The notes beneath the pieces were generated by a model that saw only the letters and a list, made by a program, of their open reading frames with translations, made no database searches and was not told the DNA's origin. Positions 4,818 through 44,422 of a stretch of DNA of 64,000 nucleotides are shown in pieces (position 1 is the first letter of the stretch; each line of letters opens with the position of its first letter). The position numbers and the translations under genes were made by a program. The stretch is from an uncultured Nitrospiraceae bacterium (GTDB lineage Bacteria > Nitrospirota > UBA9217): positions 149,099-213,098 of the forward strand of contig CAZPGZ010000001.1 of the NCBI GenBank assembly GCA_964586075.1, read 5' to 3'.

Positions 4818-4849
4818 GAAATACTATCTCCTTTACTGCACATATCGCC

Positions 4850-4882
4850 TTCAAACTAAAAGAGGGGAACTAGTCCCCTCGT
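4850..4882 (-). terminator. Rho-independent terminator at the end of the chemosensory operon
   Basis: Hairpin GAGGGGA-actag-TCCCCTC (4862..4881), followed on the minus strand by TTTTAGTTT. It lies between the receiver-protein stop codon and the valS promoter region. Confidence 0.5.
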
Positions 4883-4912
4883 CCGGCACTCAGTTATTTT
4901 CGTTATTTGGTT

Positions 4913-7036: not shown

Positions 7037-7040
7037 AACG

Positions 7041-13983: not shown

Positions 13984-14149
13984 TATGCCCCCGAAGTGCA
14001 GCTTCCCAAATTTTAGAATATTAGCATGATAAAAAAGTCATTGTCAACTGCTTATATATGCATTTGGAAGAAGCCCGCTGCGCTTATTCGTTGCGTCACG
14101 GAACGCAGCAGTATGCGGCAGAGAGATCAGGTGAATACAGCCACCGGAA

Positions 14150-15202: not shown

Positions 15203-15255
15203 AGGAAACCCTTTTTCTCGGTAGTTATACCATGCTCAAAAACATTTTGCACATT

Positions 15256-15300
15256 TTCTTTTCAAAAAAGAAAAGGCATCCCGATGCGCGGGATGCCTTT
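15256..15300 (-). terminator. Rho-independent terminator downstream of the HU gene
   Basis: Hairpin AAGGCATCCCG-atgcg-CGGGATGCCTT (15272..15299), followed on the minus strand by TTTTCTTTTTT. Confidence 0.55.
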
Positions 15301-15333
15301 CTTATAACGCCGTTACTACTAAGGGGGAAAAAA

Positions 15334-23359: not shown

Positions 23360-24688
23360 TCACGGCTGGACCGTCTCCAAAAGCCGGTAAAACTCCCGCC
23401 TCACTGCTTCGTCATTCAGAATCCCGACGTGGGTCGTATCGAATCCGTATGTCTTGATGGCTTTCATGTGAATCCGCGAATCGAGCTGGCTCTTCAGGGC
23501 AATCACCCCGTCGCCGCTGGCCCCGGACCGGTTCCGATAGCTGAAAAACATGTAAAAGGGTAGGTTCTGCGGAGTTTCCTGCTGGTACAGCCGTGTCAGA
23601 AATACGCTCTCTGTCGCGACATCGCGCCAGGAAGGGACCACAACAGGCGCCGATTTGAGGCCGCTGTTCGCGTCCTCCACGCCGCCGTATGGCGACGACA
23701 TCGAAATATACATCTTCAGATAAGCCGGCTTGTCACGCTTGCTCAGCGTGTCGATGGCCGACCGCGCCACGAGGCCGCCCATGCTGTGCGCGACAATAAC
23801 CAGCCGGTTAATAGTATGTCTGCTGTTCCTTTCGATAATGGAATTGGCCAGATGCGATTCGAGCTGCGCCAAGGGCAGGCCGGAGGGGTAGTAGTAAAAC
23901 CAGGGCTGAAAGCGGCTGCGGTCCAGACCGTCCACTATATACTTCCAGTCCTGCGGCGTTCCTTCCATGCCGTGCACAAACAGAACAACTGTTTTCTTGG
24001 CATCATACTCTTCCAATGAGAATATCGACCCCTGGGTATGGGTCAGCAGCTGTGTGGGACGGTAGACTCCCATGGTGCCGTACCGGGAATCAAAGAAATC
24101 ATCATCGAGGGAAGTATATTTATAGCTGTTCACCGTCACTTTCGTATTAACCGGAATCTCCGCTTTTTTGGTGACGTTGAAATCGAGCTTGACTTCCGGG
24201 CCGAGCACCGTGATACCGTCGATGGTCAAGGAACGATTGACAGCAGCCCGCTTCCCCACCGGTGTCCACCCGATCATTTCCTGAGATTCGAAGTAATTGT
24301 TGTTGTTCAGATCGACAAAGGCCAGAAGATCGTACTCTCCTTCCGGCAGGAAGAGCGAGTAAAACGTGGCAGGGCTTCGAAGGATGCGGGTAGCGACAAT
24401 TTCGCGCTGCGCATACCGGTCAGACACCGCGACAATCAGCACCGGGCCGTTGTAGGGACGGTTCATCAAAATTCTGCCGCTCAGATAGAAGCAGTCTTCC
24501 GGATACAGTTCCCGTCTTGCTTCCAGACTGGGATGAGATTGAAATGAGGATTCCAGGGATTTATGCCTTCCCATGAAGGCGAGGTAATCGGTCGCGGCGC
24601 CGCATCCGGATAGCACTATCACCAGCAGTATTAAGAGCGCCGAAACCGTCAGCAATTTATGTTTGGTGTTCAGCCAAATATAACCCAA
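23360..24688 (-). CDS. Alpha/beta-hydrolase lipoprotein (lipase/esterase-like)
   Basis: Lipobox LSGC, plus VVLFVHGMEG and the nucleophile-elbow motif AHSMGG. Confidence 0.7.
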   Translation of the reverse strand: MGYIWLNTKHKLLTVSALLILLVIVLSGCGAATDYLAFMGRHKSLESSFQSHPSLEARRELYPEDCFYLSGRILMNRPYNGPVLIVAVSDRYAQREIVATRILRSPATFYSLFLPEGEYDLLAFVDLNNNNYFESQEMIGWTPVGKRAAVNRSLTIDGITVLGPEVKLDFNVTKKAEIPVNTKVTVNSYKYTSLDDDFFDSRYGTMGVYRPTQLLTHTQGSIFSLEEYDAKKTVVLFVHGMEGTPQDWKYIVDGLDRSRFQPWFYYYPSGLPLAQLESHLANSIIERNSRHTINRLVIVAHSMGGLVARSAIDTLSKRDKPAYLKMYISMSSPYGGVEDANSGLKSAPVVVPSWRDVATESVFLTRLYQQETPQNLPFYMFFSYRNRSGASGDGVIALKSQLDSRIHMKAIKTYGFDTTHVGILNDEAVRREFYRLLETVQP

Positions 24689-24962
24689 AATAGGCCCTCC
24701 CTGTAAACGCTGAAGACTTGCAGCACGGTGTTAAACTGACGGAAGATTATACCCTTGTTTTCATATTGCAATCAAGTTCTTGTTTTGTACAAGTGCTGTT
24801 TTGTTCTTTGAAAACAGTCTGAATCCGAAGAAAAAATTCTTGCCCCCTTCGCGAAAGTATAGTAACCTCACTCCATTGGGAGGAACTTCAGCTCAGAGGT
24901 TTTCCCATCTCACCTTGCATCCTCCTGACGATTAAATAGAACAACAGTTGAGGAAAAATATT

Positions 24963-25790
24963 ATGATTACGAACATGCCAAGGACTCTTTCGGCTGGTTT
25001 GTTATTCGCGGCACTCGCCATGGTTCTTTGCATACCCGTGGCCGGGGCGCAGGCGGGAGGGGCAAAAGCAATGACCATTTATCAGATGACCTGGGAAGGC
25101 GATAACGTCGAAGGGGAGCTTTATATCAATGATTTTTTCATCAACAACTTCAGCGGCGCGCAAGCCTTCGGCGGCCTGCCCCTGAACCCCTATCTCGTGG
25201 GAGAAAACGAAGTGCGGGCCGAAGTGCGCAAAAAAAACACTACAAAGCCGGCGCAGCTGACGATCAATGTGTCCGCGATGACCCAGGGAGAGATCGCTGC
25301 GAGCAACCAGCCCGGAAGCGTGACCTCGCTTGAAATTAAAGACGCTGAATTAAAACCCGCCACTACGGTCAAGGCCGTCAAAAAATTCAGCGCTCCCCTG
25401 GATTTCAGCAGCCATCTGCGCCCGACCGGAACTGCCAGCGGGAAAGAAGCGACTGAATACACCAAAATGATTTACGAGCTTTTCAGGGCGAAGAAGATCG
25501 AGGCTCTCATGAAGGAATTAGAGGTCAAGATCAGCGACTACGCAGCCGCCTACCCGGGGCATGATTTTGCAACGGAATTCCGGTCCGTTCTCACCGATAT
25601 GCTTCGGGGAAAACTCGCGCCGATCGATCTCAATCAACTGAGGGCCAGAAAAGCCGGCCCCGGCGGCAAAGTGTGGCAGATCCTCGAAGGGAAAAAAGAA
25701 TTGATCCGCATAATCGCCCCCGACGGTTCCGAAAGCGACATGGCCGTCTACGTTGGTGTGATCGATAGGAAACTGAAGGTCGTACGGTAG
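24963..25790 (+). CDS. Secreted hypothetical protein
   Basis: Signal peptide (LLFAALAMVLCIPVAGAQA) with a GAGG RBS before the ATG at 24963. Confidence 0.5.
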   Translation: MITNMPRTLSAGLLFAALAMVLCIPVAGAQAGGAKAMTIYQMTWEGDNVEGELYINDFFINNFSGAQAFGGLPLNPYLVGENEVRAEVRKKNTTKPAQLTINVSAMTQGEIAASNQPGSVTSLEIKDAELKPATTVKAVKKFSAPLDFSSHLRPTGTASGKEATEYTKMIYELFRAKKIEALMKELEVKISDYAAAYPGHDFATEFRSVLTDMLRGKLAPIDLNQLRARKAGPGGKVWQILEGKKELIRIIAPDGSESDMAVYVGVIDRKLKVVR

Positions 25791-25850
25791 CCAAGGACAA
25801 TTTTCTGCATGCACGAGGACTTAAAAGGACACTTAGGACACAACGTCCCC

Positions 25851-27788
25851 AAAGATTCCCCTCGGCTGAAATAACGTTCTCTGTGTTTACTCTACTTTTT
25901 ATTTATAGACGTAAAATAAGGGCTGAGAGGATTATCCCTACCAAATAATAGATGTTTATAGGTATTACTAGAACACTCTATGCTGCCACAATTCAAATTT
26001 TCTAAATAGGCCTTTTCATGTAACTGCAGCATTCTTAATGATGTTTCAATGCTTAACCGCACGCTAATCTTATCACTTAATCTAATCAAAGCATTCATAA
26101 GAATATCGAAATATGTATGGAGGTTTTCAACAAGTGTATTTAAATACGGCAAAGCTGAAGCGGAGTGAACTATTTGGTTTCTAGTCGTATAAATTCTTTG
26201 AATATGCCACGCTACCCGTTGACGGTGAGAGGAAATAGTTTCCTTGATTATTTCTGGTTTGTGAAATTTTTCATGACACCAATAGCATCGATTCTTCAAA
26301 AGTGGGTGTTTTTCTAATAAACCGTAAATGTGCAATCTGCAATCTTTCAAATCTGATGAAATGAGAAGACAAATGGATTTATCGAAAAAATTACCTTCCA
26401 CTGGAAGCTCTTCTATATAATTGCGTACAGAATAACCACCATGAAATAGATTTTCGCTTGTATCCTTAAATATTTTTTCAACATACGTTAGTGTAAGTGA
26501 AGGCAATAAATAGTTAAGGTATTGAGTAATTCTTGCCTGTCCATCATCTTCTCTTGGAGGTGGCAAAAAGCCTTCGAGTGCTGCCCATAAACTTACAAGT
26601 TGGTTTTCCGGAGCTACCCCCTCGATTGCTGTCCGGTGATAATCCATTGCCTTTACAAATAAATTTATAGAAGACTCGTCGAATTTACCTTTACCAAGCG
26701 TTTCTATAGTTTCATCAAAGTTTCCAACAAACTTGGCCCTTGTTACTGTGCCACGCTCCATAGGTGCGGGTGGTGATTTAACAACAAAATATTCCTCCTC
26801 ACCATCCCTTTTTACAACACAATTTTGCAACCACGTTGGCTTTCGGTGATGATCATAAAAGCGGTAGATATCGGCAAGCAATTCAATAGATGAGTTTGCT
26901 AATTGACGTGCTATAAACCTGTCTTTTGTTTTGATTTTATCAAATATGATATATTGCGTGTATTGTTCATTTATTCCTAGCAAACCATGCAGGTGTTTCC
27001 TAGATTCTATTTCACTCGGTAACGTATCCAATATTTTAACATCAAGGTTTTCCGCGACCTTTTTAAGTTGACTAAATTCCGCTGATCCTCTAAATATAAT
27101 TTTCCAGGAAATATCCTTTCCTTCAAAAATATCTAAAAATGCTTTTATCTGAGAATGCGAATTTATTTTCCTGGGTAGTGCGGTCCAATTAAAAAAATAA
27201 TTAAGCGTCATAAAGTACAGAAATTGTTTGCTATAACCTCGTAGTTCAATTTCAGCGGTTAAAGCTACTGCCAGTTCTGTGAGCTTTTTTTTCTCATTCG
27301 GATACGCTACGGTCTGCTCAATCTTTCTTCTTAACAAGTACCAATACTTATCTGCAATTTCCGTAAGGAGTGCTCTAGTCGTTGCTCTCAAATCCTCCGG
27401 ATTTTTTGTAAGTTCTTTGAGGTTTTTCAAATATTGCGTACTCAGTTCGGGCATATCTTCTTTAATGATAGGATCGTTCTTAAATCGATTTTCAAGTTCC
27501 TCTACAACTGGATTAAGAGCAGCGGGCTTGACTCGCCCTTTAATTAATTCTGATGCCAGCAAATTTAGCTCTAGAATATTTGTGTGCGTATTCAATGCGG
27601 GAGCCTTGAAAGAGTCAATCGTGTGATGAAATAATAATTCCTCTAATATCTGCGCAAAAAATAGCAAACCCATAGAAGCATCACTCAAATCCCATTTATA
27701 AAGACGCGGCTTAATCATATATGATTTCTCCTTTTTTCAGACCTACTTGGAGATACTGAGGCATTTAAGAAGCGCTTTGGGGACGTTG
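25851..27788. mobile_element. AT-rich cassette of about 1.94 kb bounded by 14-bp perfect inverted repeats (CTTTGGGGACGTTG). No transposase is present.
   Basis: Left copy CAACGTCCCCAAAG at 25851-64. Right copy CTTTGGGGACGTTG at 27775-88, plus an imperfect tandem copy at 27799-813. GC content is visibly much lower than the flanks. Confidence 0.35.
25892..27718 (-). CDS. Large hypothetical protein with a C-terminal HEPN-type Rx4H motif (RNQIVH), proposed here as a candidate abortive-infection or defence RNase
   Basis: 608 aa filling the AT-rich cassette. The motif ...IYTTRNQIVHSASALPYLNTLVENL is HEPN-like (R-x4-H). A CYWCHEKFH Cys/His cluster sits just upstream of it. Confidence 0.55.
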   Translation of the reverse strand: MIKPRLYKWDLSDASMGLLFFAQILEELLFHHTIDSFKAPALNTHTNILELNLLASELIKGRVKPAALNPVVEELENRFKNDPIIKEDMPELSTQYLKNLKELTKNPEDLRATTRALLTEIADKYWYLLRRKIEQTVAYPNEKKKLTELAVALTAEIELRGYSKQFLYFMTLNYFFNWTALPRKINSHSQIKAFLDIFEGKDISWKIIFRGSAEFSQLKKVAENLDVKILDTLPSEIESRKHLHGLLGINEQYTQYIIFDKIKTKDRFIARQLANSSIELLADIYRFYDHHRKPTWLQNCVVKRDGEEEYFVVKSPPAPMERGTVTRAKFVGNFDETIETLGKGKFDESSINLFVKAMDYHRTAIEGVAPENQLVSLWAALEGFLPPPREDDGQARITQYLNYLLPSLTLTYVEKIFKDTSENLFHGGYSVRNYIEELPVEGNFFDKSICLLISSDLKDCRLHIYGLLEKHPLLKNRCYWCHEKFHKPEIIKETISSHRQRVAWHIQRIYTTRNQIVHSASALPYLNTLVENLHTYFDILMNALIRLSDKISVRLSIETSLRMLQLHEKAYLENLNCGSIECSSNTYKHLLFGRDNPLSPYFTSINKK

Positions 27789-27878
27789 ATGCAGGGTGCT
27801 TTAGGGACGTTGTTACTTACGTTACTTCCCTTTTTTCTATGACCAGCTTCAGGGCGTTGATGCGTCTGATGTTTTTAG

Positions 27879-28142
27879 GTGCCCAGGTATATTTTCTCTC
27901 GAACGGTTTTAGATATGCAGGCGTCACGCGTTCGGCTCTGGGTGGTGCGAAACGATGCGATTTCGAAGGCTATCGTGGAAGGATGGCTTGATTATATGTA
28001 TATGCGGACATCTTGTCAAGGGAGGTGCTGCAAGATGTCCTTTGGGGTCACCCATTTGAAAGCACTCTACCAAGTGAAAAAGCTCCACCTTGAGACGAGA
28101 AAAGAGCCCTCGGGGCGTTTAGGGTCGGACTTGAATCTGTAG
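27879..28142 (+). CDS. Hypothetical 87-aa ORF
   Basis: ORF spanning the junction of the X and Y repeats. It has no recognisable domain. Confidence 0.15.
   Translation: MPRYIFSRTVLDMQASRVRLWVVRNDAISKAIVEGWLDYMYMRTSCQGRCCKMSFGVTHLKALYQVKKLHLETRKEPSGRLGSDLNL
27969..28025. repeat. Repeat X1 (about 57 bp, about 75% identical to X2 at 30390..30446)
   Basis: GCTATCGTGGAAGG...TTGA.TATA...CTGTCAAG.AGG is shared with 30390..30446. Confidence 0.45.
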
Positions 28143-28180
28143 TTATTGACAATCCTGAAGCAACCTACGCTGTGTCCCAC
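28124..28180. repeat. Repeat Y1 (57 bp, one mismatch to Y2)
   Basis: GTCGGACTTGAATCTGTAGTTATTGACAATCCTGAAGCAACCTACGCTGTGTCCCAC. Confidence 0.8.
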
Positions 28181-28255
28181 GAGGCCTCTGGGGTCAAAAT
28201 CTTTATTGCCAGCATCACTGCCATCGGAAAAGCATTGGCCCTCATTACTCCGCTG

Positions 28256-28732
28256 TCAGATACTTTTGAAAACGGTTGTAATGTACGGATTAAACCCCAT
28301 CTTCCGCCAGAATGCCGTGGAAGTCTCATTGGCCACGACGACGCGAAGTTCTATCCGGTGAACGCCATGGCCCACAAACCATGTCTGTACCGCGCGGAAT
28401 AGGCTCTCGCCGATGCCGTTTCTCCGGCACCTCTCGGTCACGGCAAGATCGCACACCATTCCATACTCCTGGTTCTCGAACACCGGCGGATGCTTGGCCA
28501 ATGCCGCCAAGCAGTAACCAACGGCTTCTCCATCCTGCTCGGCGACCAGAACACACGAGGTCTCTGACATCATGTGACCGGAGATAAACTCCTTGAACCG
28601 CTCATGGCCGTCGGCTGCGCGGGTAAAATGGGGATCGCGCTTCTTATGGAAATCAACGAACTCTTTCCAGAGCTCCTCGATAGCCGGTAGATCGGCACTC
28701 ATTGCTTTCCTTATTAATGTATGACTTTTCAT
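28256..28732 (-). CDS. GNAT-family N-acetyltransferase
   Basis: 158 aa acetyl-CoA-binding fold (...RRNGIGESLFRAV...). Confidence 0.85.
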   Translation of the reverse strand: MKSHTLIRKAMSADLPAIEELWKEFVDFHKKRDPHFTRAADGHERFKEFISGHMMSETSCVLVAEQDGEAVGYCLAALAKHPPVFENQEYGMVCDLAVTERCRRNGIGESLFRAVQTWFVGHGVHRIELRVVVANETSTAFWRKMGFNPYITTVFKSI

Positions 28733-28756
28733 TCATCGTCCTTGAGGGTGTATAAA

Positions 28757-28813
28757 GTCAGACTTGAATCTGTAGTTATTGACAATCCTGAAGCAACCTA
28801 CGCTGTGTCCCAC
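28757..28813. repeat. Repeat Y2 (57 bp direct repeat of Y1)
   Basis: Identical to Y1 except for one base. It also causes the duplicated MTILKQPTLCPT shadow ORFs. Confidence 0.8.
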
Positions 28814-28850
28814 ATGCCTTATTCATTTTGCAGCGCTCGCTCCGTCACCA

Positions 28851-29276
28851 CTAATAAGGCTCAATCTTATACTTCTCCTTTTTCACCGTCTCATCCTCAA
28901 CCTTAAGTTCGTAATAAGTCCCTCCAATACCTCCGACACGTTCATGCCTGACAACATAGGTTTTTCCAGCCTCGACAATGAAATCCAGCTTCCGCTCAAA
29001 ACTCTGATACCCCCGAAGCCAGACATACACAACGATTGAGTGCTTGCCCGGCAAAAATTCTATTTGCCCGCTGCCGTCCCAGAGGCTGCCGTAAAAATTC
29101 CCCCGCCTTACGCCGTCGACCTCCTTGATGCGAACTGTTTCTGAGGTATCAATGCCACCGGGAATCTTCAAGAGGCCGATTTTTTCCGGAGGCAGGGCAT
29201 CGCCCTGATATATCCGATACGTCGCGCCACAGGAGGTGAGCGATACGAAAAGCAGGACAAGAACTGCTGTGTGCAT
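28851..29276 (-). CDS. Hypothetical lipoprotein
   Basis: Signal peptide with a lipobox (VLVLLFVSLTSCG) from the ATG at 29276. The track start adds 27 aa. Confidence 0.5.
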   Translation of the reverse strand: MHTAVLVLLFVSLTSCGATYRIYQGDALPPEKIGLLKIPGGIDTSETVRIKEVDGVRRGNFYGSLWDGSGQIEFLPGKHSIVVYVWLRGYQSFERKLDFIVEAGKTYVVRHERVGGIGGTYYELKVEDETVKKEKYKIEPY

Positions 29277-29379
29277 GTTGTGTGCGAGAAATCTGTTGCC
29301 TATTTTTATTATCCGAGTCAGTCTGATTTCCATACCATGACCCCTTTGCAGGAACAAACAGCATTATGAAAGGATTTAT

Positions 29380-30339
29380 CTATTTGCTGTTCTTCACAGC
29401 GCGAACAGCTGCCTGCTTCAGATCATCACTGGAGCTCGTGCGGATGATTTCGTTCGCGCCGGCCACAGAGAGGGCTGAGTTCACCAGAACATTGTACAGT
29501 ATCTCTGACGGATTCAGCTCGACCCGCTTGATTGTTCCTTTTTGCTGGCCCTCGTTTGCTTTTATCTTTGCGATGACATCGCTCCCACCCAGAGGATATC
29601 CGACGGCAAATACCGTCATCTGGCCGGAAGCCATCGGTGTTCTCGTTTTCAAGGTCGAATGCTCTTCTCCTTTGGCAAGCACTTTTTCCCCGGCCTTGAT
29701 GGCAATGGTCACAAAATAGCCTTCTGATAATGCTTCGTTAAACCTGTTATACCTTGTCTCACTTTCCACGGACATGTCCGGTTCGCGGGTCAGCTGTTTT
29801 TGAACAACGGGGTCCAGCAGTCCGAGACGGACGCGCGCAATCCTGCCGACTACGTCCTGCGTTCGGGAAATCTGACCAAGCAGCTCAGGATTGCTCAGCC
29901 GTGCGGCAGCGATGCAGCGCACTTCTATTAACGCGTCATTCCGGACAGCCTGCTGAATGGTTTGTTGATCTCTGATCTCGCGGAAGGCAACGAGGCGGAT
30001 GAGAGGATTTTCACTTTTGAACAATTCCGACAGCTGTTGTTCCGCGGCTGTCCTGACGCGGGCGTCCTTGTCTTGCCGGCTTAACCGGCCCAGGTCTCCA
30101 CCTGATGTATTCAGTCTTTTGACGATGTCATTTTTGTCCCAGAAACTCAGAGACCGTATCCAATAGCGCTCACCCAGAGAGCGGATACTTTCGGCCTCTT
30201 TCCTGATTCCCTTCAGCCGATCATCAGGATCATCGCTTTGCATAAGCGGCACCGAGGAGCAGGCTTGAGCCATTACCAGAAGCATGATAATAAACAGCGG
30301 GAAAAATGTTCGGAATCGCGCGGTCAGGTCTTGTGTCAT
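29380..30339 (-). CDS. Hypothetical lipoprotein, helical-repeat (HEAT-like) region
   Basis: Lipobox (MAQACSS) and repetitive alpha-helical content. Confidence 0.55.
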   Translation of the reverse strand: MTQDLTARFRTFFPLFIIMLLVMAQACSSVPLMQSDDPDDRLKGIRKEAESIRSLGERYWIRSLSFWDKNDIVKRLNTSGGDLGRLSRQDKDARVRTAAEQQLSELFKSENPLIRLVAFREIRDQQTIQQAVRNDALIEVRCIAAARLSNPELLGQISRTQDVVGRIARVRLGLLDPVVQKQLTREPDMSVESETRYNRFNEALSEGYFVTIAIKAGEKVLAKGEEHSTLKTRTPMASGQMTVFAVGYPLGGSDVIAKIKANEGQQKGTIKRVELNPSEILYNVLVNSALSVAGANEIIRTSSSDDLKQAAVRAVKNSK

Positions 30340-30389
30340 GGCAATATCCTCTTTTGGCGCTGGGGTAAATATTTTTTTTGAGAATGGGA

Positions 30390-30446
30390 GCTATCGTGGA
30401 AGGCTGATTTGAGTATAGGGATAAGTCGACACCCTGTCAAGAAGGA
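30390..30446. repeat. Repeat X2 (partner of X1)
   Basis: See X1. Confidence 0.45.
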
Positions 30447-30793
30447 AGGATTTTCGGCAAAGTGTCATGAATCTTCAGATCCGCTTATTTTCCTCGAGCA
30501 CATAAAAGTTCCTTAGCCGAAGGCCAAGGGTGCGAGAGACCTAGAATAAAACCCATGCGAAAATATAGGCGGACGACCGAGGACGAGGGTTAAACATTTC
30601 GGACTGTTTGAGCCCAAAGGGGGAGTTTCCGAAATGTACCGAGGACGACCGAGTCAGCCGTAAAGGATTTTCGCCGGGCGCCCTTCTGAGGAGGACCTTC
30701 AATCTGAGCCGAAGGCTCCTGATAAAGCGACCTCCCCGCGACTAACCCGGCCCCGGCCAAATCCGGAATCATATGTCGCAGGGGATTGGCTTA

Positions 30794-30903
30794 CCTTTCT
30801 TGGAGCGAGCAAGAAAGGTGACAAAAAGAAATCATTATGTTATTACTGTTGATTATGCAACCGCCACGCATCATTCAGAATTTATTTGTGATCAAAAGCT
30901 GTC
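30794..30903. repeat. Repeat Z1: a degenerate copy of the 3' end of the NUDIX gene, including the CCTTTCTTG...CAAGAAAGG hairpin
   Basis: It aligns to 32374..32463. The coding fragment is decayed (FDHK*ILNDAWRLHNQQ*). Confidence 0.65.
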
Positions 30904-30918
30904 ATAGAAGCGATTTGC

Positions 30919-32103
30919 TCAGAAGAGATCGAGGACTGTCTGGGCCGCCTGTGATGAGAGGCTGAGCGAGGTGGTGCCGAGCGATTCCCGGGTCTGGAGC
31001 ATCAACATGTTGGCCCCTTCCTGGTTCATGTCGGCAAGGGTAAGCTCGTCAACCCCGACCTGCAGGCTGTTGACCATGCTGGTCGTGAAATCCTCGCGCG
31101 TCGTAACAATGCTCAGATTGGAAGAGAGGCTTGCAGAGTAGTTCTGGAGGGTGGTCACGGCGGAATTCAGCTCGTTTATCGAGGCCTGTATGCCGCCGGA
31201 AGCGAGCCAGGAGTTGCTGCCGGGCGTGGTTACGGTTATGGAGTTCGGCGCGCCGGTTGTGTGGTTGAAACCGCTCGCGTCGTACTGAATCGAGACCGCG
31301 TCGCCGATGTTGAACGTGCCGGACACCACCAGGGCCCAATAGTCTCCACCAATGGAAGGCGGCTGATAACCACTGGCATCCACGGAATCGCCGGTTGCTA
31401 TTGCTCCTGTCACGGAATCGACAATTCTGTAATTGAACGGATTCGCGTTCATGAGATTTCCCAGCGCGGCCGTTACCGTGCCGGCGCCGAGCTTGACAAT
31501 GTGATAGGTAGAGTCATAACTTGACACTGTCGCCGTCTGGAGAGTTGTGACCGTGCTCGTGACGATCTGCGTGCTGCTTGCCGTGTTCGCCGCGTGCAGG
31601 CCGAGCCCGGTGCTCGAGCCGTCGAACCCGTTGATCTGAAGCGAATTCCCGCTCGTGCTGTCGAAGATGACGGTCAGATTCTGGGACGCGAGAAAGTCGG
31701 TGCCGGAATAGCCAGAGTCGCGGGACATCTGCGTGATCTGGCCCAAAATTGTGTCAAACTGCGCGGCGTAAGAGTTGATCGCAGTCGTGTCGGACGTGGC
31801 AAGCGCGGACTGGGCCAGGCCTTTTGCGGCATCGATCAGCCTGGTAATGCCGGAGATGCCGTCGTTCGCGGCCTGAATGGTGCTGACCGCGTTCGACATA
31901 GAGTCTTTCAGACCCGTCAGATTGGAGGCACGCATATTGAGCGTCTGGGCCGCGAAAAAGCTGGTGGGATTATCAAGGGCGGTGTTCACTTTTTTCCCGG
32001 TGGCAAGACGCTCCTGTGTCCTGTTCAGGAGACTTGACGTCTTCTGCAGGCTGATGAGATTCGACCTCATTCCCGTTGTCAGCGATATGTCATTGATGCC
32101 CAT
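30919..32103 (-). CDS. fliC: Flagellin (divergent FliC-like)
   Basis: Conserved flagellin N-terminal domain (...LATGKKVNTALDNPTSFFAAQ...ANDGIS) and C-terminal domain (...ANMLMLQTRESLGTTSLSLSSQAAQTVLDLF). The ATG at 32103 follows a GAGG. Confidence 0.85.
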   Translation of the reverse strand: MGINDISLTTGMRSNLISLQKTSSLLNRTQERLATGKKVNTALDNPTSFFAAQTLNMRASNLTGLKDSMSNAVSTIQAANDGISGITRLIDAAKGLAQSALATSDTTAINSYAAQFDTILGQITQMSRDSGYSGTDFLASQNLTVIFDSTSGNSLQINGFDGSSTGLGLHAANTASSTQIVTSTVTTLQTATVSSYDSTYHIVKLGAGTVTAALGNLMNANPFNYRIVDSVTGAIATGDSVDASGYQPPSIGGDYWALVVSGTFNIGDAVSIQYDASGFNHTTGAPNSITVTTPGSNSWLASGGIQASINELNSAVTTLQNYSASLSSNLSIVTTREDFTTSMVNSLQVGVDELTLADMNQEGANMLMLQTRESLGTTSLSLSSQAAQTVLDLF

Positions 32104-32223
32104 TTCCCTGGCCTCGACCTCTTGGCAGAACAATCACGCCCGATTTCTAATATCGTTGCGACCTTTCGCGTAACTAATTTAAAAAAAGCACACGAATCCC
32201 GTGTTTTGCTCTTGCTGCTATGC

Positions 32224-32250
32224 TTATCGGCAGATTGGTTGATTACTTTA
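32224..32250 (-). promoter_or_regulatory. Sigma-28 (FliA) consensus promoter upstream of the flagellin gene
   Basis: On the minus strand the sequence reads TAAA, 15 nt, GCCGATAA. This is an exact match to the sigma-28 consensus. Confidence 0.55.
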
Positions 32251-32373
32251 GGGTGATTGAGGGCGGATGGCGACGATGAGAAGTCTGAAGGGTCAACTTA
32301 AAGAGGGTGTTTTATTTTGTGTTTTTTGCCGCTATCATCGTGTTTCGTTTATTTTTTACTGCACCTTTCTTGT

Positions 32374-32463
32374 TTGCCCGAAGAAAGGTGACAAAATCCT
32401 GTTACCGTTGATTATGCAACCGCCACGCGTCATTCAGAATTTTCTTATGATCAAACGCTATCT
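32374..32463. repeat. Repeat Z2: the native 3' end of the NUDIX gene plus its downstream hairpin
   Basis: Partner of Z1. Confidence 0.65.
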
Positions 32464-32824
32464 CGGCATGCTGCCAGTCAACAACCAGCTCCGCTGCGCT
32501 CGCGTCATCGCCCGCCTTGAGAGAGGAGATGTCAGCTTCGCCGAGAAAGGCCACGGAGACAGTGTGCCTGCGGGGGTCTCTCGCAGGGTCGGAATAGACG
32601 CCAATAAGCCGCAGGTCTTTGACGATGAGGCCGGTTTCCTCGCGCGTCTCGCGACGGCACGCATCCTCAACGGTCTCCCCAACTTCCACAAAACCGCCGG
32701 GCAGCGCGTACCACCCCTTGAACGGATCGTACGCCCGCCGAATAAGAACAACTGCACCGTTGTGAAACACGACGCAGTCAACTGTCAGAAAAGGTCGTTC
32801 GTTCATAGATAGCCATGGACACAA
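32402..32824 (-). CDS. NUDIX hydrolase
   Basis: Nudix box GGFVEVGETVEDACRRETREETG. Confidence 0.85.
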   Translation of the reverse strand: MCPWLSMNERPFLTVDCVVFHNGAVVLIRRAYDPFKGWYALPGGFVEVGETVEDACRRETREETGLIVKDLRLIGVYSDPARDPRRHTVSVAFLGEADISSLKAGDDASAAELVVDWQHAEIAFDHKKILNDAWRLHNQR

Positions 32825-32842
32825 AACGCTGTCATGTTCCTG

Positions 32843-33193
32843 CTACATCTCGCGCGTCAACTGCACTACGACCTCATTCACTTTCATACCTTCATCATGG
32901 AGTGTCCAGGTCTGCGTGATGCTGTACTTGCCTTCAATGGTTATGCCATGAGCGGGCATGTGCACTTTTTTCAACGAAACGAGGTTCGGCGCTTTTTTCG
33001 ACAAGGCAAACTGCATGGTGTTGTCTCCGGATTTCGCGAGCTCCATATGAGGCTGGTTCCCGACGGAACAAGAATGGGTCATGGCAAGCTTTCCATTATT
33101 GTCATGTATACGGTTGGCCCGTCGCAAACTTTTCGACAATCGCGTTCCCTGCAGACGCGAGTTCATAAGTGACCTTTGTGCAAAAGCCTTCAT
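32843..33193 (-). CDS. Hypothetical 116-aa protein translationally coupled to the caspase gene
   Basis: Its start overlaps the caspase stop codon (ATGA-type overlap at 33193). It has no recognisable domain. Confidence 0.4.
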   Translation of the reverse strand: MKAFAQRSLMNSRLQGTRLSKSLRRANRIHDNNGKLAMTHSCSVGNQPHMELAKSGDNTMQFALSKKAPNLVSLKKVHMPAHGITIEGKYSITQTWTLHDEGMKVNEVVVQLTREM

Positions 33194-34560
33194 TATCTAT
33201 TCGGCCCGATCAATTGCGGTATTTGTTCATTGTTATACTGTTTTCTGGCTATCCGCTCCACTTGGGGTTTCATGTAGCTAAACAGATCCTGTATCGCGAG
33301 CGAGCCGTCCTGTTTTACAACATTCTCATTCTTGATTCCCTTGAGTAAAAAATAGGTAAAGAGACCGTGGCCCTTCTCGTCATAGGTCGAGCTGCTCTGT
33401 TCGCCCGAGGAAGCTGCAAGAACAGTTATGTTTTTTGCCATTACTGCGTCATGCTTGAGATTCATGACAAGAGGACGGGCGCCTTTCGCAAGGACCGATC
33501 TGCCGCCCGCGCCCGAGAAGCATGAATCAAGCACAACAATGATTTCCTTTGCCGGTAGCTTTCCCAGGGCGTCGTACATTCTCTTCAGCGAATAACCCGT
33601 CTCCGCGATAAACGTCGGGTCGCCGTCATAGGGAACAAGATAAGCATCCCCCGTCTTGGTGTTGGGAGCCCCGTGTCCCGAATAGTAGATGAAAACAGTA
33701 CTCCCGTGTTCTATATTATTCGGGAGCCATCGCTCGATGTATTTTACAAAATCCCCCAACGCCGCCCGGTCATTTGTGAGGGTAATGATGTTTTCCGCCG
33801 GATACCCCATGGCTTTCGTCAGGTAGTCGGTCACGGTCTGCGCGTCGCTCACGGCAAAATCTGCCGCGGGTAGTTTCTGGCGGTACTGCTCGATTCCGAT
33901 GACAACGGCGTACGCGTTGGGATTCGTCTTCGATTTTGTGATCTGGATGTCGTCGACATCGGATCTGATGAGCGGTTTTGCAGCCTGAGGAAGAGCATCC
34001 TGCCGGCCAAGCTTTGCCAGGATCAACGGACGGCTCTCTTCGATCCTCAGACAGAGATTTTCAATTGCCTGCACCATGGCGCTGTTCATCGGCTCGACGT
34101 CAGCGCTCGCGGAAAACCTCGTCATGCCGCCTTGTACTGTGCTTTGTCCTGAAAACGAACCGAGATCACGCCCGTCCTTCGAAATCAACGCCGCCTTCAA
34201 ATTCGCGGCGTATTGAAAAGAATTGCCTTGCCGCAAGTGGTAGGTGACGTCAATGTTCAGCACGCTGTCCGCAAGGCCGTCCAAAACACGGTCGAATGTC
34301 GAGCGGGCCGCGAGATACCGTACGATCATCCTCTTCAACGATTCCTTGTCTACAGCGATCGGGGTCACTGGATTTGGATCTTCCTCCTTGACCCCCCGAA
34401 TTTCCACATGCACCGAAAACGGCACGGGAACCAGGCTCCTTGACGGAGAATCGACGGGCGCGATCATGACCGTGCGGGACGTGGCGCACCCGCTGAGCAC
34501 AACGGCCGCAAGTAGCATCAGGATCACACTGATTGAGGATATCTTACGCGTTCTGTTCAT
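33193..34560 (-). CDS. Lipoprotein with a C-terminal caspase (peptidase C14) domain
   Basis: Lipobox (LSGC). The caspase His-Cys dyad sits in YYSGHG ... VLDSCFSGAG. An N-terminal domain of about 200 aa is unassigned. The ATG at 34560 follows a GGGGG. Confidence 0.8.
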   Translation of the reverse strand: MNRTRKISSISVILMLLAAVVLSGCATSRTVMIAPVDSPSRSLVPVPFSVHVEIRGVKEEDPNPVTPIAVDKESLKRMIVRYLAARSTFDRVLDGLADSVLNIDVTYHLRQGNSFQYAANLKAALISKDGRDLGSFSGQSTVQGGMTRFSASADVEPMNSAMVQAIENLCLRIEESRPLILAKLGRQDALPQAAKPLIRSDVDDIQITKSKTNPNAYAVVIGIEQYRQKLPAADFAVSDAQTVTDYLTKAMGYPAENIITLTNDRAALGDFVKYIERWLPNNIEHGSTVFIYYSGHGAPNTKTGDAYLVPYDGDPTFIAETGYSLKRMYDALGKLPAKEIIVVLDSCFSGAGGRSVLAKGARPLVMNLKHDAVMAKNITVLAASSGEQSSSTYDEKGHGLFTYFLLKGIKNENVVKQDGSLAIQDLFSYMKPQVERIARKQYNNEQIPQLIGPNR

Positions 34561-34814
34561 AACCTGCCCCCTGGCGGATCGTTGTGTTTGACGGACAACC
34601 AACACGCATTGTCTCTCTAAAAACCAAGCACGCAATAGCAACCCACACTTTTTATGAAATATTATATTTTTCTTTCCCGGCTTTGTAAAGTTATTTACGC
34701 CGATGTTATATGTATCCTACATTGCTGCTTACTGTGTACCTCTATCTTTTTAAAAACTTCGTCTCGCAGGGATTGACTTTTCCCTCTCTTCAATCGTATA
34801 CTTCTTCACGCGCC

Positions 34815-40999: not shown

Positions 41000-41186
41000 G
41001 GTTTGGAGAATGGCTTCTCTAAAAGTGCGAATAGATTTTATAAAGTCTCGATGCAATCGAAAGAACAGAAAAATACCCCCACTGCACTCACCAACTGCAT
41101 AAAACTATCCAAAAATAAAAAAGAGCCAGCAGAATCTGCCGGCTCTTTGATTTCAATGGTGGGCGCTACTGGGATTGAAGCAGTGG
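41000..41186. repeat. Direct repeat R1, a copy of the tRNA-Val 3' end (last 30 nt, one mismatch) plus its terminator hairpin and about 120 bp of degenerate flank. It is att-like.
   Basis: 41117..41186 is nearly identical to 44353..44422. The upstream roughly 120 bp are recognisably homologous (ggtttggagaatgg...aaagtgcgaa). Confidence 0.75.
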
Positions 41187-41220
41187 ACTTTGAAAATTAC
41201 ATTTCCAATGACAAATAGGC

Positions 41221-41278
41221 TTGACATCGAATTTAAAGAACAGTATTCTATAACGCGTTAAGCATTATTAACGCGTTA
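41221..41278 (+). promoter_or_regulatory. tetR promoter with a twin palindromic operator
   Basis: TTGACA, 17 bp, TATTCT (41221-49). It is followed by TAACGCGTTA, 8 bp, TAACGCGTTA (41251-78). Each 10-mer is itself palindromic, and the second ends 3 nt before the tetR ATG. Confidence 0.5.
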
Positions 41279-41281
41279 GAT

Positions 41282-41893
41282 ATGAATATCAAAGAACGTC
41301 GCCTTCTACATAAGAAGCTCTTCCGAGAAGAAATACTTGCTGCAGCGAGGGAATTATTTGCGCAGGAAGGATACCGTGGCTTCTCTATGCGTAAACTGGC
41401 TACTATGATTGAGCATTCCCCCACGGCCATTTATCTCTACTTTCATGATAAAGATGACCTGCTATACAATATTTGCGAAGATCTCTATTTGTCGTTTCTC
41501 AACAAGATCATTGAAATTCGCGAATCCGAACCAAATCCACGAGAAGCACTTCGATTAGTTCTCCACGAATATATTGTTTCCGGTTTGTCTAAACCAGATC
41601 ATTACAAAGTGGTTTTTTTTAGCAACCCGACAGTATATGGTACGCCGGATGATTTTATGAAAAAAGACACAATGGGCCGGCGCGTATATCTTTGTTTTCG
41701 AGAATTAGTAGCCGAATGCATGCAGCGAGGCATTCTGATCGGGAGTGATCCAGAGGTGCTTACCCAGGTATTCTGGTCTGCTGTACATGGTCTGGTTACG
41801 GCTATTATTTTTACCAAAGACTTTCCCCTCTCGAACACCAATATCCTAGCAGAGACAATGGTAGATGGCCTCTTAACAGGTCATGGAGCATAA
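41282..41893 (+). CDS. TetR/AcrR-family transcriptional regulator
   Basis: N-terminal HTH (ILAAARELFAQEGYRGFSMRKLATMIEHSPTAIYLYF). Confidence 0.85.
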   Translation: MNIKERRLLHKKLFREEILAAARELFAQEGYRGFSMRKLATMIEHSPTAIYLYFHDKDDLLYNICEDLYLSFLNKIIEIRESEPNPREALRLVLHEYIVSGLSKPDHYKVVFFSNPTVYGTPDDFMKKDTMGRRVYLCFRELVAECMQRGILIGSDPEVLTQVFWSAVHGLVTAIIFTKDFPLSNTNILAETMVDGLLTGHGA

Positions 41894-41944
41894 CATGGCG
41901 GCACCAAATAAAATCACAGTAAAGCAATATTTGAGGTTTGGTTT

Positions 41945-44086: not shown

Positions 44087-44217
44087 GTCAAGAGATAAGA
44101 ATTAAAAAACTGAAATTTCCTTTTAGACTTTATCTTCATTTATATCACAACTTGAAATCACATCCGCTTCAACTATCGCTTGATCAACATATACATGCTG
44201 TTTATCGCGGTTCGGCT

Positions 44218-44422
44218 TGAAGATTGGAGAACGGTATTTCCGAAAGTGCGAACAGCTTGTGCAAATTCTCGGTGCTATGCACAAACGATAAAACCGAAAA
44301 ACAGGAAGGTTGCTCTTTCTTATTAACTGTACAAAAACTGACACACGAAATAAAAAAAGAGCCAGCAGAATCTGCCGGCTCTTTGATTTCAATGGTGGGC
44401 GCTACTGGGATTGAACCAGTGG
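44218..44422. repeat. Direct repeat R2, comprising the native tRNA-Val 3' end, its terminator and a degenerate flank
   Basis: Partner of R1. Confidence 0.75.
44356..44392 (-). terminator. Rho-independent terminator of tRNA-Val
   Basis: On the minus strand it reads AGAGCCGGCAG-att-CTGCTGGCTCT followed by TTTTTT. Confidence 0.6.

Follow-up and report, generated by a model that had tools for sequence, protein, structure and literature searches.

Repeat anatomy of an accessory region downstream of a NUDIX hydrolase gene in an uncultured Nitrospirota chromosome: a case for serial 3'-end displacement

We favour, with modest confidence, the view that the accessory region downstream of a NUDIX hydrolase gene in the chromosome of an uncultured Nitrospirota bacterium owes its growth to a series of duplicative insertions, each anchored by homology ("3'-end displacement"). 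This view draws on what the sequences show: the anatomy of the locus, longer duplicates in related genomes, pseudogene fragments, promoter motifs, the identity of an ApeA defence gene and the variation of the neighbouring slot; event order, promoter activity and, from the anatomy, the recombination pathway are proposed. The locus is a case of ordinary genome plasticity. The stretch of DNA analyzed, 64 kb in length, is called the window below.

Repeat pairs in the window and its relatives

Three repeat pairs were present in the region, as the earlier note had described:

28113-28180 and 28746-28813: repeat Y, 68 nt, 93% identical, exact run of 53 nt, 101 bits
30843-30903 and 32402-32462: repeat Z, 61 nt, 89% identical, 79.7 bits, a palindromic hairpin after each copy
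27969-28020 and 30390-30441: repeat X, 52 nt, 79% identical, 45.5 bits

All three exceed chance, since none of 60 dinucleotide shuffles of 24000-34500 produced a direct self-match above 31.9 bits (mean, 26.4). Each pair brackets the genes named for it (GNAT, 168-aa lipoprotein, 319-aa protein, flagellin; all on the minus strand). No third copy of X, Y or Z was found in the 64-kb window, and nhmmer matched them in 1.97 Mb of DNA only at their own locus and its orthologues; further copies of Y, Z, the hairpin (hp) and the neighbouring element E were absent from the 64 kb and from ~150 kb of lineage DNA. Over the 64 kb and the relatives, X, Y and Z are thus local rather than REP-like dispersed repeats, in agreement with the earlier description. 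The window contained five long repeat pairs, each spaced 0.6-3.2 kb. Neither integrase nor transposase was found among the called genes and their Pfam matches from about 18.9 to 42.8 kb, and no recombinase gene lay within about 7-10 kb of the repeat region; the region is, as proposed before, an accessory mosaic lacking a nearby recombinase gene. The independent Logan assembly L167 was 100% identical to 28157-24759, with its contig end within Y1; therefore, the window-specific arrangement is not an assembly artefact.

Syntenic relatives used for comparison were L162 (~96% identical), L163, L164 and L002 (a complete Nitrospirota MAG chromosome, ~90% identical). Judged against them, Y and Z are not the discrete 57-90-bp flanking repeats assumed earlier, but what trimming has left of 0.3-0.6-kb duplications in which the genes upstream contributed their 3' ends: Y and Z are apparently worn-down remnants of much longer duplications, and X is apparently a related promoter pair. 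The flagellin, 319-aa and 168-aa blocks were fixed in all four relatives, so those events are old. Whole blocks differed at two sites, the slot that holds ApeA and the position upstream of NUDIX, where the caspase gene was replaced in L162. Block-by-block differences between relatives, a point on which the earlier note is supported, include the three unrelated cassettes that three genomes carry in the slot next to GNAT and the loss of most of GNAT in L162. Recombination is judged to be active at the locus because the window and L162 are 100% identical over one stretch of ~590 nt but only 76% identical, measured per 100 nt, elsewhere.

The NUDIX anchor, flagellin, lipoprotein and GNAT genes

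The part of the region nearest to the anchor gene comprised the following features:

32402..32806, minus strand: NUDIX hydrolase gene (Pfam NUDIX, 2e-24), the conserved anchor, stop codon TAA at 32402-32404
32362..32390, no strand: hp2, palindromic hairpin CACCTTTCTT-N9-AAGAAAGGTG, 11 nt past the NUDIX stop
30919..32133, minus strand: flagellin gene (Pfam Flagellin_N, 3.7e-11), gene call of 394 aa from 32103, longest ORF from 32133
30843..30903, minus strand: Z1, displaced pseudo-copy of the final 20 NUDIX codons with in-frame TAA (…GATCACAAATAAATTCTG…), 89% identical to Z2
30791..30821, no strand: hp1, second hairpin copy, TTACCTTTCTTG-N7-CAAGAAAGGTGA
30688..30785, minus strand: structured module of 98 nt that separates hp1 from E, a clean indel between …CCCAA and AGAAGG…
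30552..30687, minus strand: E, conserved element of ~136 nt whose ends are inverted, CCCGGCGAAAAT…ATTTTCGCATGGG (alignments A1 and A4)
30511..30529, minus strand: terminator-like hairpin between E and X2, 8 pairs (5 G-C), followed by AACTTTTATG

The 134-aa NUDIX product matched exactly a protein on JGI contig Ga0248168_1000103. Z2 (32402-32462) is the last 61 nt of this gene, its true 3' end; orthologous copies of Z1 were found in L162, L163, L164 and L002. The flagellin gene, bracketed by Z2/hp2 and Z1/hp1, occupied the equivalent position in the same four genomes with 91-96% nucleotide identity. In L002 its flanks form a direct repeat of ~230-320 nt comprising the NUDIX 3' end, the hairpin and E. 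These flanks are similar direct copies, hairpin loop type included, which speaks against displacement and also fits simple duplication or later gene conversion. The GC content of the flagellin, GNAT and lipoprotein genes was native-like and bore no mark of import, a further point against displacement.

The hairpin pattern had two matches in the window against 0.00 expected, and two copies per genome surrounded flagellin in five assemblies; in L082 the two copies enclose other cargo of 2.6 kb. Hairpins flanking differing cargos in two lineages hint at a specific site and run counter to displacement. E folds as a long hairpin with a consensus structure of 35 pairs, four of them with compensatory changes, and had no match in Rfam. 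It adjoins the hairpin by the same end in every case, on either side of it; it is inverted beside NUDIX in L082-84 and L164, and L165 has a fragment of it in an unrelated setting. The 98-nt module was missing from L162 (96% identical) and present in the proximal E of L002 and the inverted E of L164.

Further downstream, the following features were recognized:

30390-30441, minus strand: X2, TTGACA-17-TATACT, 11/12, with the CTTCCACGATAG box, ahead of the 319-aa/168-aa(/GNAT) operon
29380..30339, minus strand: gene for a 319-aa protein with N-terminal signal sequence, without Pfam family, lineage-specific
28851..29357, minus strand: 168-aa lipoprotein gene with LTSC lipobox, gene call of 160 aa
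28830..28849, minus strand: NUDIX-like stub of ~20 nt resembling codons 'GDDASA', directly past the 168-aa stop codon
28746..28813, minus strand: Y2, conserved intergenic segment upstream of GNAT, single orthologous copy in L162, L164 and L002
28256..28732, minus strand: GNAT acetyltransferase gene (Pfam, 6.9e-18)
28113..28180, minus strand: Y1, second Y copy, in the window only
27969-28020, minus strand: X1, TTGACA-17-TATAAT, 12/12, with the CTTCCACGATAG box

By its motifs, X is a predicted family of strong sigma-70-type promoters rather than an insertion scar. Both copies have the architecture TTGACA-N17-TATAAT/TATACT with a conserved box, CTYCCRCGATAG, immediately downstream, and are the top two promoter matches within 8 kb (X1, 12/12; X2, 11/12). 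Within the window, X1 and X2 hold the sole exact occurrences of the box, and one more match, with a single mismatch, lies at 13355. X2 was kept in L162, L163, L164 and L002, and L162 has a third X member at a different locus, upstream of another accessory block and with the same box. X2 is thus the predicted promoter of the lipoprotein operon; X1, located in native-GC DNA ~250 nt upstream of the ApeA gene, probably drives that 608-aa gene. What had been read as X bracketing three genes is two transcription units in succession. Of the repeats taken as insertion flanks, X has to be set aside as a promoter family, and Z and Y are consistent with target-duplicating insertions.

Only six clusters of homologues were found for the 319-aa protein. 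The stub behind the 168-aa gene is what would be left of a NUDIX 3' end displaced earlier; longer versions were present in L002 at 14079-14126 (48 nt, 77%) and 15213-15311 (99 nt, 75%, E=6e-12). The GNAT unit ends ~70 nt past the stop codon, at …AAAGATTTGACCCCAGAG, on the same base in the window, L002 and L162. At the position of Y1, the relatives have a 235-300-nt copy of the 168-aa 3' end and NUDIX-like fragments: behind GNAT, L002 has a 300-nt copy (92%), then the 99-nt NUDIX-like fragment and a degenerate Y', the counterpart of Y1 after the long duplicate, and in L162 (~96% identical) a 235-nt copy (93%) stands behind a decayed GNAT, of which the first 87 nt remain. Y1 and Y2 would thus be the remains of a ~0.6-kb duplication around GNAT. 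The window junction CCCCAGAG/GCCTCGTGGGAC matches the spacer end AAGAGGACACGTGGGAC of L002, which is consistent with loss of the absent ~0.5 kb by a microhomology deletion. The Y core differs between genomes at 1-3 of 54 nt, against about 5-6 expected; it may be functional in its own right, a feature that displacement leaves unexplained.

The ApeA cassette and the variable slot

To the left of the repeats, the following features were found:

25831..27822, no strand: low-GC cassette between inverted repeats with arms of 24 nt at 25831-25854 and 27799-27822, extra inner copy 27775-27788
25892..27718, minus strand: 608-aa ApeA-family HEPN antiviral defence gene, GC 0.362, GC3 0.315
24948..25790, plus strand: 280-aa gene with signal sequence and no recognised family, in the window-specific slot, GC native-like
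24921..28112, no strand: variable slot, from just beyond Y1 (28113) to the conserved region upstream of a DUF676 esterase gene

The inverted-repeat-bounded HEPN cassette mentioned in the earlier note was confirmed. Its GC content was 0.30-0.42, against ~0.5 outside, and the perfect 14-mer CAACGTCCCCAAAG occurred only at three sites flanking the 608-aa gene (0.4 expected by chance). ApeA is a single-gene HEPN anti-phage system (PDB 9HXD Ec2ApeA; bioRxiv 10.64898/2026.01.26.701840). The profile of the 608-aa family matched Ec2ApeA over its full length (PDB 9HXD, E=7.5e-110), 21 of 24 family members matched PADLOC ApeA, and R513/N514/H518 were invariant in the family. The "HEPN" gene is therefore, by homology, a true ApeA defence gene. 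It shares with Ec2ApeA full-length homology, equal size and an invariant RN-x3-H motif, but its family forms a distant ApeA branch (nearest relative 48% identical, below Pfam detection) and its activity is putative.

In defence islands and core-genome hotspots of the E. coli and Pseudomonas pan-genomes, a shared pair of flanking genes can enclose different anti-phage systems. The slot that separates the GNAT block from the DUF676 esterase gene is likewise a defence-gene hotspot, with an unlike cassette in each of the three genomes compared (window, L002 and L162) and no mobility genes. The content of the window's slot was missing from the other two: L002 carries Vsr, UvrD/PD-(D/E)XK and Dcm (a Dcm/Vsr/helicase-nuclease set), and L162 a 781-aa ATPase (PADLOC Ppl, 3e-17; Ppl-like) and a 73-aa protein. 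Unlike those hotspots, this slot belongs to an uncultured Nitrospirota host and has three sampled occupants. Its left edge varies by genome, falling inside Y' for L002, inside the NUDIX-like spacer for L162 and just past Y1 for the window, while its right edge is near-constant, agreeing to a few bases across the genomes compared.

Origin of the region and comparison with known systems

According to the displacement model, an incoming segment would consist of a copy of a resident upstream gene with new downstream genes; it would recombine through the shared gene, and its other end would join illegitimately inside the 3' part of the resident gene. A circle integrating by one Campbell-type crossover would yield an identical outcome, with the upstream gene intact, the new block behind it and the old 3' end shifted downstream as a dead fragment. 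The first layer would have placed hairpin/E/X2 promoter/319-aa/168-aa behind NUDIX, followed by a NUDIX-like fragment; the second, flagellin behind NUDIX, followed by Z1 (dead NUDIX 3' end), hairpin and E; the third, Y and GNAT behind the 168-aa gene, followed by its dead 3' end, a NUDIX-like fragment and Y'. Later deletions would have trimmed the duplicates differently per lineage, the window keeping Z (61 nt with hairpin) and Y (68 nt). X1 would be a resident promoter behind which the foreign, low-GC, inverted-repeat-bounded ApeA gene now lies.

NUDIX-like fragments of ~20, 48, 65 and 99 nt trail successive blocks, and this variation in length argues for serial events rather than one att site. 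Hence, the insertions would not be independent, as had been proposed, but serial, on one shared anchor (NUDIX, then the 168-aa gene). The NUDIX-adjacent and displaced copies are unlike in E orientation, hairpin loop and presence of the NUDIX-like spacer, as expected if one copy was donor-derived and the other resident. The same signature recurs in the window, where a 75-nt repeat including the tRNA-Val 3' end brackets a low-GC block of TetR and squalene-hopene-cyclase genes, and two genes lie between the copies of a 54-nt repeat that begins at the stop codon of an aminotransferase gene. Against the model, neither donor nor intermediate was seen.

Empty sites with a single repeat copy, which the earlier note had suggested looking for, were found for neither flagellin nor GNAT in the relatives examined, and because of this lack of a clean empty site, insertion is inseparable from local tandem duplication with differential loss. 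In the latter history, which involves no DNA import and which we consider rather unlikely, the units NUDIX 3' end-hairpin-E-flagellin and 168-aa 3' end-spacer-Y-GNAT would have been doubled in tandem, and the second gene copies deleted or overwritten by turnover of the adjacent slot, leaving partial copies of the upstream genes. It predicts the same junction type (downstream gene end joined to upstream gene middle) and agrees with the native GC of flagellin and GNAT, the long collinear direct flanks in L002 and a slot left edge at a different point per genome, as expected from erosion. However, the second copy of each downstream gene would have to be lost in every lineage; beside NUDIX, L164, the window and L162 have E inverted or lack it; three of four genomes lack the spacer in the first copy; and the same signature at tRNA-Val brackets a GC-foreign block. 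That block, together with Z, which has the classic attL/attR anatomy (target 3' end duplicated, gene restored), favours instead site-specific integration of integrase-less islets by a tyrosine-type recombinase encoded elsewhere. The att site would be the NUDIX 3' end and hairpin (11-13-nt inverted arms, 7-9-nt spacer), with circular cassettes carrying a replacement 3' end integrating in tandem, as at tRNA genes. The hairpin pairs around flagellin in five assemblies and around the 2.6-kb cargo in L082, the loss of synteny directly after the hairpin in L082 and L083, and the constant end by which E adjoins the hairpin on either side fit this scheme. We nevertheless judge it unlikely: no integrase was found in 18.9-42.8 kb or at any relative's locus, the starts of displaced NUDIX fragments vary, which excludes a single crossover site, hairpin spacers differ within one genome (GAGCGAG vs GTTTGCCCG), the duplication around GNAT involves no hairpin and Y is unstructured, the repeats run hundreds of nucleotides past any plausible core site, and the empty site was not found.

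It is very improbable that X, Y, Z/hairpin and E are regulatory or REP/MITE-like families paired by coincidence and unrelated to gene arrival. Such a reading is right for X, with its third member elsewhere, and suits E (inverted ends, hairpin fold, both orientations, the fragment in L165) and a Y core conserved above its surroundings; Z, however, is NUDIX coding sequence, the partner fragments extend into long collinear duplicates in relatives, a 168-aa gene fragment occupies the Y1 position there, added copies of Y, Z, hairpin and E were absent from 64 kb and ~150 kb of lineage DNA, and all long repeat pairs are local.

Section 13 of PMC5361080, which refers to Jackson 2009, de Vries & Wackernagel 2002 and Prudhomme 2002, attributes the arrays of displaced 3' ends ("C-terminal" displacement) known from rhs, CDI and T6SS effector-immunity loci to homology-facilitated illegitimate recombination. 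As in those arrays, a conserved upstream gene would serve here as homology anchor and receive new DNA immediately after it, its former 3' end would be moved downstream, and repeated events would leave co-oriented orphan 3' fragments with no integrase. In contrast, NUDIX hydrolase and lipoprotein genes take the anchor role that polymorphic toxins have there, the displaced pieces survive as short dead stubs in place of reusable toxin/immunity modules, flagellin, lipoproteins and GNAT make up a mixed cargo, and the proposed pathway is read from anatomy. Islands integrated at tRNA or protein-gene 3' ends also have direct repeats holding the target 3' end, a restored gene and possible tandem accretion, and the tRNA-Val case in the window looks like a textbook example; unlike them, the present region has no integrase, variable fragment boundaries, repeats of up to 0.3-0.6 kb in relatives and, as one duplicated "target", the middle of a lipoprotein gene. 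Chromosomal integron arrays similarly hold co-oriented small accessory genes (here GNAT, NUDIX, lipoproteins and the defence gene) between repeats, with strong promoters, predicted in our case, at block heads; in contrast to them, the region has neither intI nor attI, several blocks have their own putative promoters and, unlike attC, Y is unstructured, X is a predicted promoter and Z is coding sequence.

Repeat pairs in the window and the loci compared

Three direct-repeat pairs, X1/X2, Y1/Y2 and Z1/Z2, had been claimed in the earlier note to bracket gene blocks. All of them were found and were non-random: the top self-match among 60 shuffled sequences reached just 31.9 bits, below the score of each pair. 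Y1 and Y2 share 53 nt of exact identity. X, Y and Z gave no REP/BIME-like scatter outside the locus in the DNA searched; the 64-kb window had no third copy, and orthologous loci only were recovered from the 1.97 Mb searched. The genes of the region lie on the minus strand throughout; for the NUDIX and GNAT genes, the start codons as called differ from those of the longest ORFs.

Features of the region (window positions)
24921–28112: variable slot
25892–27718, minus strand: 608-aa gene of the ApeA family (HEPN)
28256–28732, minus strand: GNAT gene
28851–29357, minus strand: 168-aa lipoprotein gene
29380–30339, minus strand: 319-aa gene
30919–32133, minus strand: flagellin gene
32402–32806, minus strand: NUDIX gene
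27969–28020 and 30390–30441: X pair, 52 nt, 79% identity, 45.5 bits
28113–28180 and 28746–28813: Y pair, 68 nt, 93% identity, 101 bits
30843–30903 and 32402–32462: Z pair, 61 nt, 89% identity, 79.7 bits
30791–30821 and 32362–32390: palindromic hairpins hp1 and hp2
30552–30687: element E, ~136 nt, conserved, with inverted ends, beyond hp1
30688–30785: 98-nt structured module, a presence/absence indel between 96%-identical genomes

The statement that neither integrase nor transposase is present agreed with our search, since no recombinase was found among the called genes with Pfam hits at 18.9–42.8 kb. Doubts raised in the note about integron attC sites and about an IS origin were also borne out. 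Neither intI nor attI was found among these called genes, in the scanned ORFs, or in the loci of the relatives L002 and L162. An attC after each cassette was absent: Y is unstructured, X is a promoter, Z is NUDIX coding sequence, and the hairpin hp occurs at the two flagellin flanks only. Regarding the marks of an IS or transposon (target duplication of 2–14 bp, terminal inverted repeats, transposase), X, Y and Z are direct repeats of 52–68 nt without inverted ends; the ApeA cassette is bounded by imperfect 24-nt inverted repeats, yet no target duplication was visible and no transposase was found. A scan of the whole window at Rfam gathering thresholds gave tRNA-Val as the sole match, and permissive Rfam scans of 30350–30950 and 27700–28900 gave chance snoRNA-like matches only (E 2–8).

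The nearest reference genomes carry the labels Nitrospirota/Nitrospiraceae, and at least three relatives of the lineage were among the listed matches of the metagenome scan. The window forms part of JGI metagenome contig Ga0248168_1000103 (sample 3300022666, 172 kb). Locus L001 had 99.99% identity to window 42806–22402, and L167, an independent Logan assembly, had 100% identity to window 28157–24759, its contig ending within Y1. The relatives compared were L162, a 99.7-kb contig from the sister sample 3300022663 (~96% identity to the window); L163, a Logan contig of the same type; L002, the complete MAG chromosome OY760142.1 (~90% nucleotide identity); L164, GCA_964610425.1 (about 88–90%); and L082–L084, a more distant group (NUDIX identity ~82%).

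Nature of the X, Z and Y repeats

X, described earlier as an insertion-flanking repeat, is a promoter family. Read on the minus strand, X1 contains TTGACA-17-TATAAT (12/12 sigma-70-type match) and X2 contains TTGACA-17-TATACT (11/12); these were the top two sigma-70-type matches across 8 kb. An identical box, CTTCCACGATAG (also written CTYCCRCGATAG), lies ~10 nt downstream of both promoters; its copies without mismatch were found in the window at X1 and X2 only, with a one-mismatch match at 13355. X2 is conserved ahead of the 319-aa gene in all relatives; X1 was found in the window only, in native-GC DNA outside the low-GC cassette. A third member with the same layout heads a different, L162-specific gene block. 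Thus, the X pair "brackets" three genes only because its two members stand at the heads of consecutive transcription units. From the promoter matches we infer that the X-type promoters fire, and the family may co-regulate accessory genes.

Z2 consists of the last 20 NUDIX codons including the stop codon, and Z1 is a copy of it with an in-frame TAA. The hairpin hp follows Z1 and Z2 alike; it was found at this locus only, in two copies per genome around flagellin, in five assemblies. The consensus of E forms a long hairpin of 35 pairs, 4 of them with compensatory changes, and across genomes E adjoins hp by one constant end, whichever the side or orientation. The flagellin-flanking repeat of L002 spans the NUDIX 3' end, hp and E (~230–320 nt in total); in L164 and L082–L084, E is inverted and located between NUDIX and hp, and the NUDIX-adjacent copy of the window and L162 has lost E. 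The 61-nt Z pair is thus what is left of a longer duplication of complex structure.

Flagellin was present in 4/4 syntenic relatives, and L082–L084 have NUDIX-E-hp with wholly different neighbours, few genomes being compared. Between two hp copies of L082 (3842–3884 and 6519–6572) lie a DnaJ-like and a YchJ/SEC-C gene, and the second hp copy is preceded by a short NUDIX-3'-like stub. The hp of L083 lies at 1645–1683; L082 and L083 are 92% identical and lose synteny directly after hp, beyond which L083 carries nif-like genes. Selection was rejected as the explanation for the 100% identity of E to L162; because the same tract runs ~590 nt into the 319-aa gene, it represents a recent recombination tract. 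No match to E was found in Rfam, phages, plasmids or viral contigs, and the modular element of hp, E and the 98-nt module likewise had no Rfam, phage or plasmid match. It is lineage-specific and may represent a small RNA or else a new MITE-like element.

In L002, the segments around Y follow the order 160/168-aa gene, NUDIX-like fragment, spacer, Y, GNAT, copy of the 168-aa 3' end (300 nt, 92%), NUDIX-like fragment (99 nt), spacer and a degenerate Y'. In L162, Y is followed by the first 87 nt of GNAT, a trace of the GNAT-unit end and then 235 nt copied from the 3' end of the 168-aa gene. L162, L164 and L002 have one full Y each, and a ~20-nt NUDIX-like stub lies right after the 168-aa stop codon in the window. 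The end point of the GNAT unit is identical, to the base, in 3/3 genomes (window, L002 and L162); in the window this end is joined to Y1 via CCCCAGAG|GCCTCGTGGGAC, which resembles the end of the L002 spacer, AAGAGGACACGTGGGAC. The junction fits a later microhomology deletion of the missing ~0.5-kb segment, possibly at AGAG. Y is what remains of a ~0.6-kb duplication, and Y and Z both represent eroded remnants of long duplications of neighbouring genes.

Y as a structured attC/REP-like site was rejected, as its folding did not exceed that of shuffled sequences (z −0.85 to +1.6), and no promoter was found in Y by the promoter scan. The Y core (28761–28813, ~54 nt) has 1–3 differences between genomes ~4–10% diverged. 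Together with 28733–28745 it forms an open 26-codon frame (GTG…TGA), the stop of which adjoins the GNAT ATG, a possible uORF that overlaps the start of GNAT. In L162, whose GNAT is dead, GCG stands in place of the GTG, and the start codon is thus not conserved there. The core may act as a regulatory element or encode a leader peptide.

Proposed addition of gene blocks behind anchor genes

An intact anchor gene, new DNA and then a co-oriented 3' fragment of the anchor without its 5' part were found in three arrangements: NUDIX, flagellin and Z1; the 168-aa gene, GNAT and the 168-aa 3' copy (L002 and L162); and the 168-aa stop codon followed by a NUDIX-like fragment. The pattern is repeated in L002, where three NUDIX-like fragments differing in length (12078–12142, 14079–14126 and 15213–15311) lie downstream of the real gene, together with one 168-aa fragment. 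Every successive block is followed by co-oriented dead 3' fragments of upstream genes. The same anatomy is described for rhs, CDI and T6SS loci in section 13 of PMC5361080, as 3'-end displacement by homology-facilitated illegitimate recombination. By such a process, blocks would have been added behind the NUDIX and 168-aa anchors. The layers with flagellin, the lipoprotein genes and GNAT are old; four lineages share them.

Similar junctions would be expected from a Campbell-type crossover and from tandem duplication followed by loss. Import is favoured over local duplication by the differing organisation of the NUDIX-adjacent and displaced copies, by the same signature around a clearly foreign tRNA-Val block (GC 0.43–0.47), and by the strongly mosaic identity between the window and L162. 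The two are 100% identical over ~590 nt (30100–30687), a tract whose start coincides exactly with the 98-nt indel, and identity is down to 76% over 100 nt within the 319-aa gene (29800–29899); such swings indicate patchy imports by homologous recombination between co-occurring relatives. No donor or empty site was found among the relatives compared; distant 319-aa homologues (L165 and L168), in which empty sites were sought, had unrelated contexts and were uninformative.

As in an integrase-type island, the direct repeats hold the NUDIX 3' end and leave the gene intact (Z2; Z1 is displaced). The evidence nevertheless points against a site-specific system: no integrase or other recombinase was found among the called genes at 18.9–42.8 kb or in the L002 and L162 loci, the NUDIX-like fragments (~65 nt, ~99–115 nt and 48 nt) start at differing codons and their boundaries vary, the hairpin spacers are unlike within one genome, and Y is unstructured. 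It is very improbable, in our estimation, that hp, E and the 98-nt module form a dedicated palindrome-anchored acquisition site downstream of NUDIX, capturing gene blocks repeatedly. Were this true, capture would be the work of the element itself or of a recombinase encoded at another place, X-type promoters with their shared box would express the captured blocks, and E would represent either a new structured RNA or a new non-autonomous element that targets palindromes; Nitrospirota would then possess an integron-like platform with no linked integrase.

Under 3'-end displacement, the locus would be a worked example of chromosomal gene addition without mobile-element machinery, in which the upstream gene serves as landing pad and nothing but short direct repeats is left afterwards. 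The process, so far known from toxin loci, would be extended to housekeeping anchors in an uncultured phylum; current understanding is not overturned. Gene-flanking repeats of 50–70 bp should not be taken for attachment sites before relatives are compared. Of the mosaic reading in the earlier note, a recombination-built mosaic without mobility genes stood, but the flanking families proved to be one promoter and two duplication remnants. The block-wise variation that it had expected among related genomes was confined, at the level of whole blocks, to the ApeA slot and, in L162, the caspase position upstream of NUDIX; the flagellin, lipoprotein and GNAT layers were shared.

The defence slot and other rearrangement points

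Window positions 24921–28112 had no counterpart in L002 and L162, and differing defence cargo was found between the GNAT block and the DUF676 gene in the three genomes.

Content of the slot
Window: X1; low-GC inverted-repeat-bounded unit 25831–27822 (gene GC 0.362, GC3 0.315); 280-aa gene
L002: Vsr, UvrD-helicase/PD-(D/E)XK nuclease and Dcm
L162: 781-aa ATPase (PADLOC Ppl, 3e-17) and a 73-aa protein

The slot is a defence-gene hotspot. Its DUF676-side edge agrees within a few bases in 3/3 genomes; the opposite edge lies at a different point in each. An imperfect palindrome (TGGGAAAACCT…GAAGTTCCTCCCA, ~24870–24915) lies inside the conserved edge, upstream of the DUF676 esterase gene, and is kept in L002 and L162. 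An integrase candidate in the L002 slot was rejected; the 367-aa protein is a Dcm methylase.

The 608-aa protein is a member of a rare family (24 clusters); its closest relative there has 48% identity. A family profile of 24 homologues matched E. coli Ec2ApeA (PDB 9HXD) over the full length (E=7.5e-110, residues 1–593 to 1–583), 21/24 members matched PADLOC ApeA, and the HEPN motif RN-x3-H (R513, N514 and H518; class motif Rx4-6H) was invariant. From this homology to a characterised ApeA we infer an ApeA function; a Nitrospirota defence-gene hotspot with a distant ApeA homologue is identified here. The HEPN label and the inverted-repeat boundary given earlier to this cassette were both correct. 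A conserved terminal inverted repeat moving with ApeA homologues was not found in two other genomes.

Upstream of NUDIX (window interval 32807–34792, L162 interval 1974–7630), four other genes take the place of the window's caspase-like gene in L162 and also in L003: two genes of 474 and 172 aa, a Big_2 gene and a trypsin-like gene. They are accompanied by ACP-phosphodiesterase fragments and by 156 nt copied from the 5' end of NUDIX, and an X-type promoter (L162 2097–2152) lies upstream of the new block. Both NUDIX ends are therefore rearrangement points.

A 75-nt direct repeat (96%; 41112–41186 and 44348–44422), comprising the 3' 30 nt of tRNA-Val(CAC) and a terminator, brackets 41187–44347 (GC 0.43–0.47), which encodes a TetR regulator and squalene-hopene cyclase and no integrase. 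At the tRNA-Val site, L002 carries the intact tRNA and then unrelated sequence, which makes the site a second variable slot. The neighbouring 387-aa gene was rejected as an integrase, being a PUA/SAM methyltransferase. A further direct repeat, of 54 nt (80%; 54746–54799 and 57419–57472), encloses a 690-aa gene of the beta-lactamase family together with a PNPOx-like gene; its first copy begins with the stop codon of an aminotransferase gene (class V), again the signature of a block lying behind the 3' end of a gene. The five long repeat pairs of the 64 kb are all spaced 0.6–3.2 kb apart. Additionally, three tandem repeats of 93–99 nt (67–83% identity) were found at 5087–5371, probably within a coding region.
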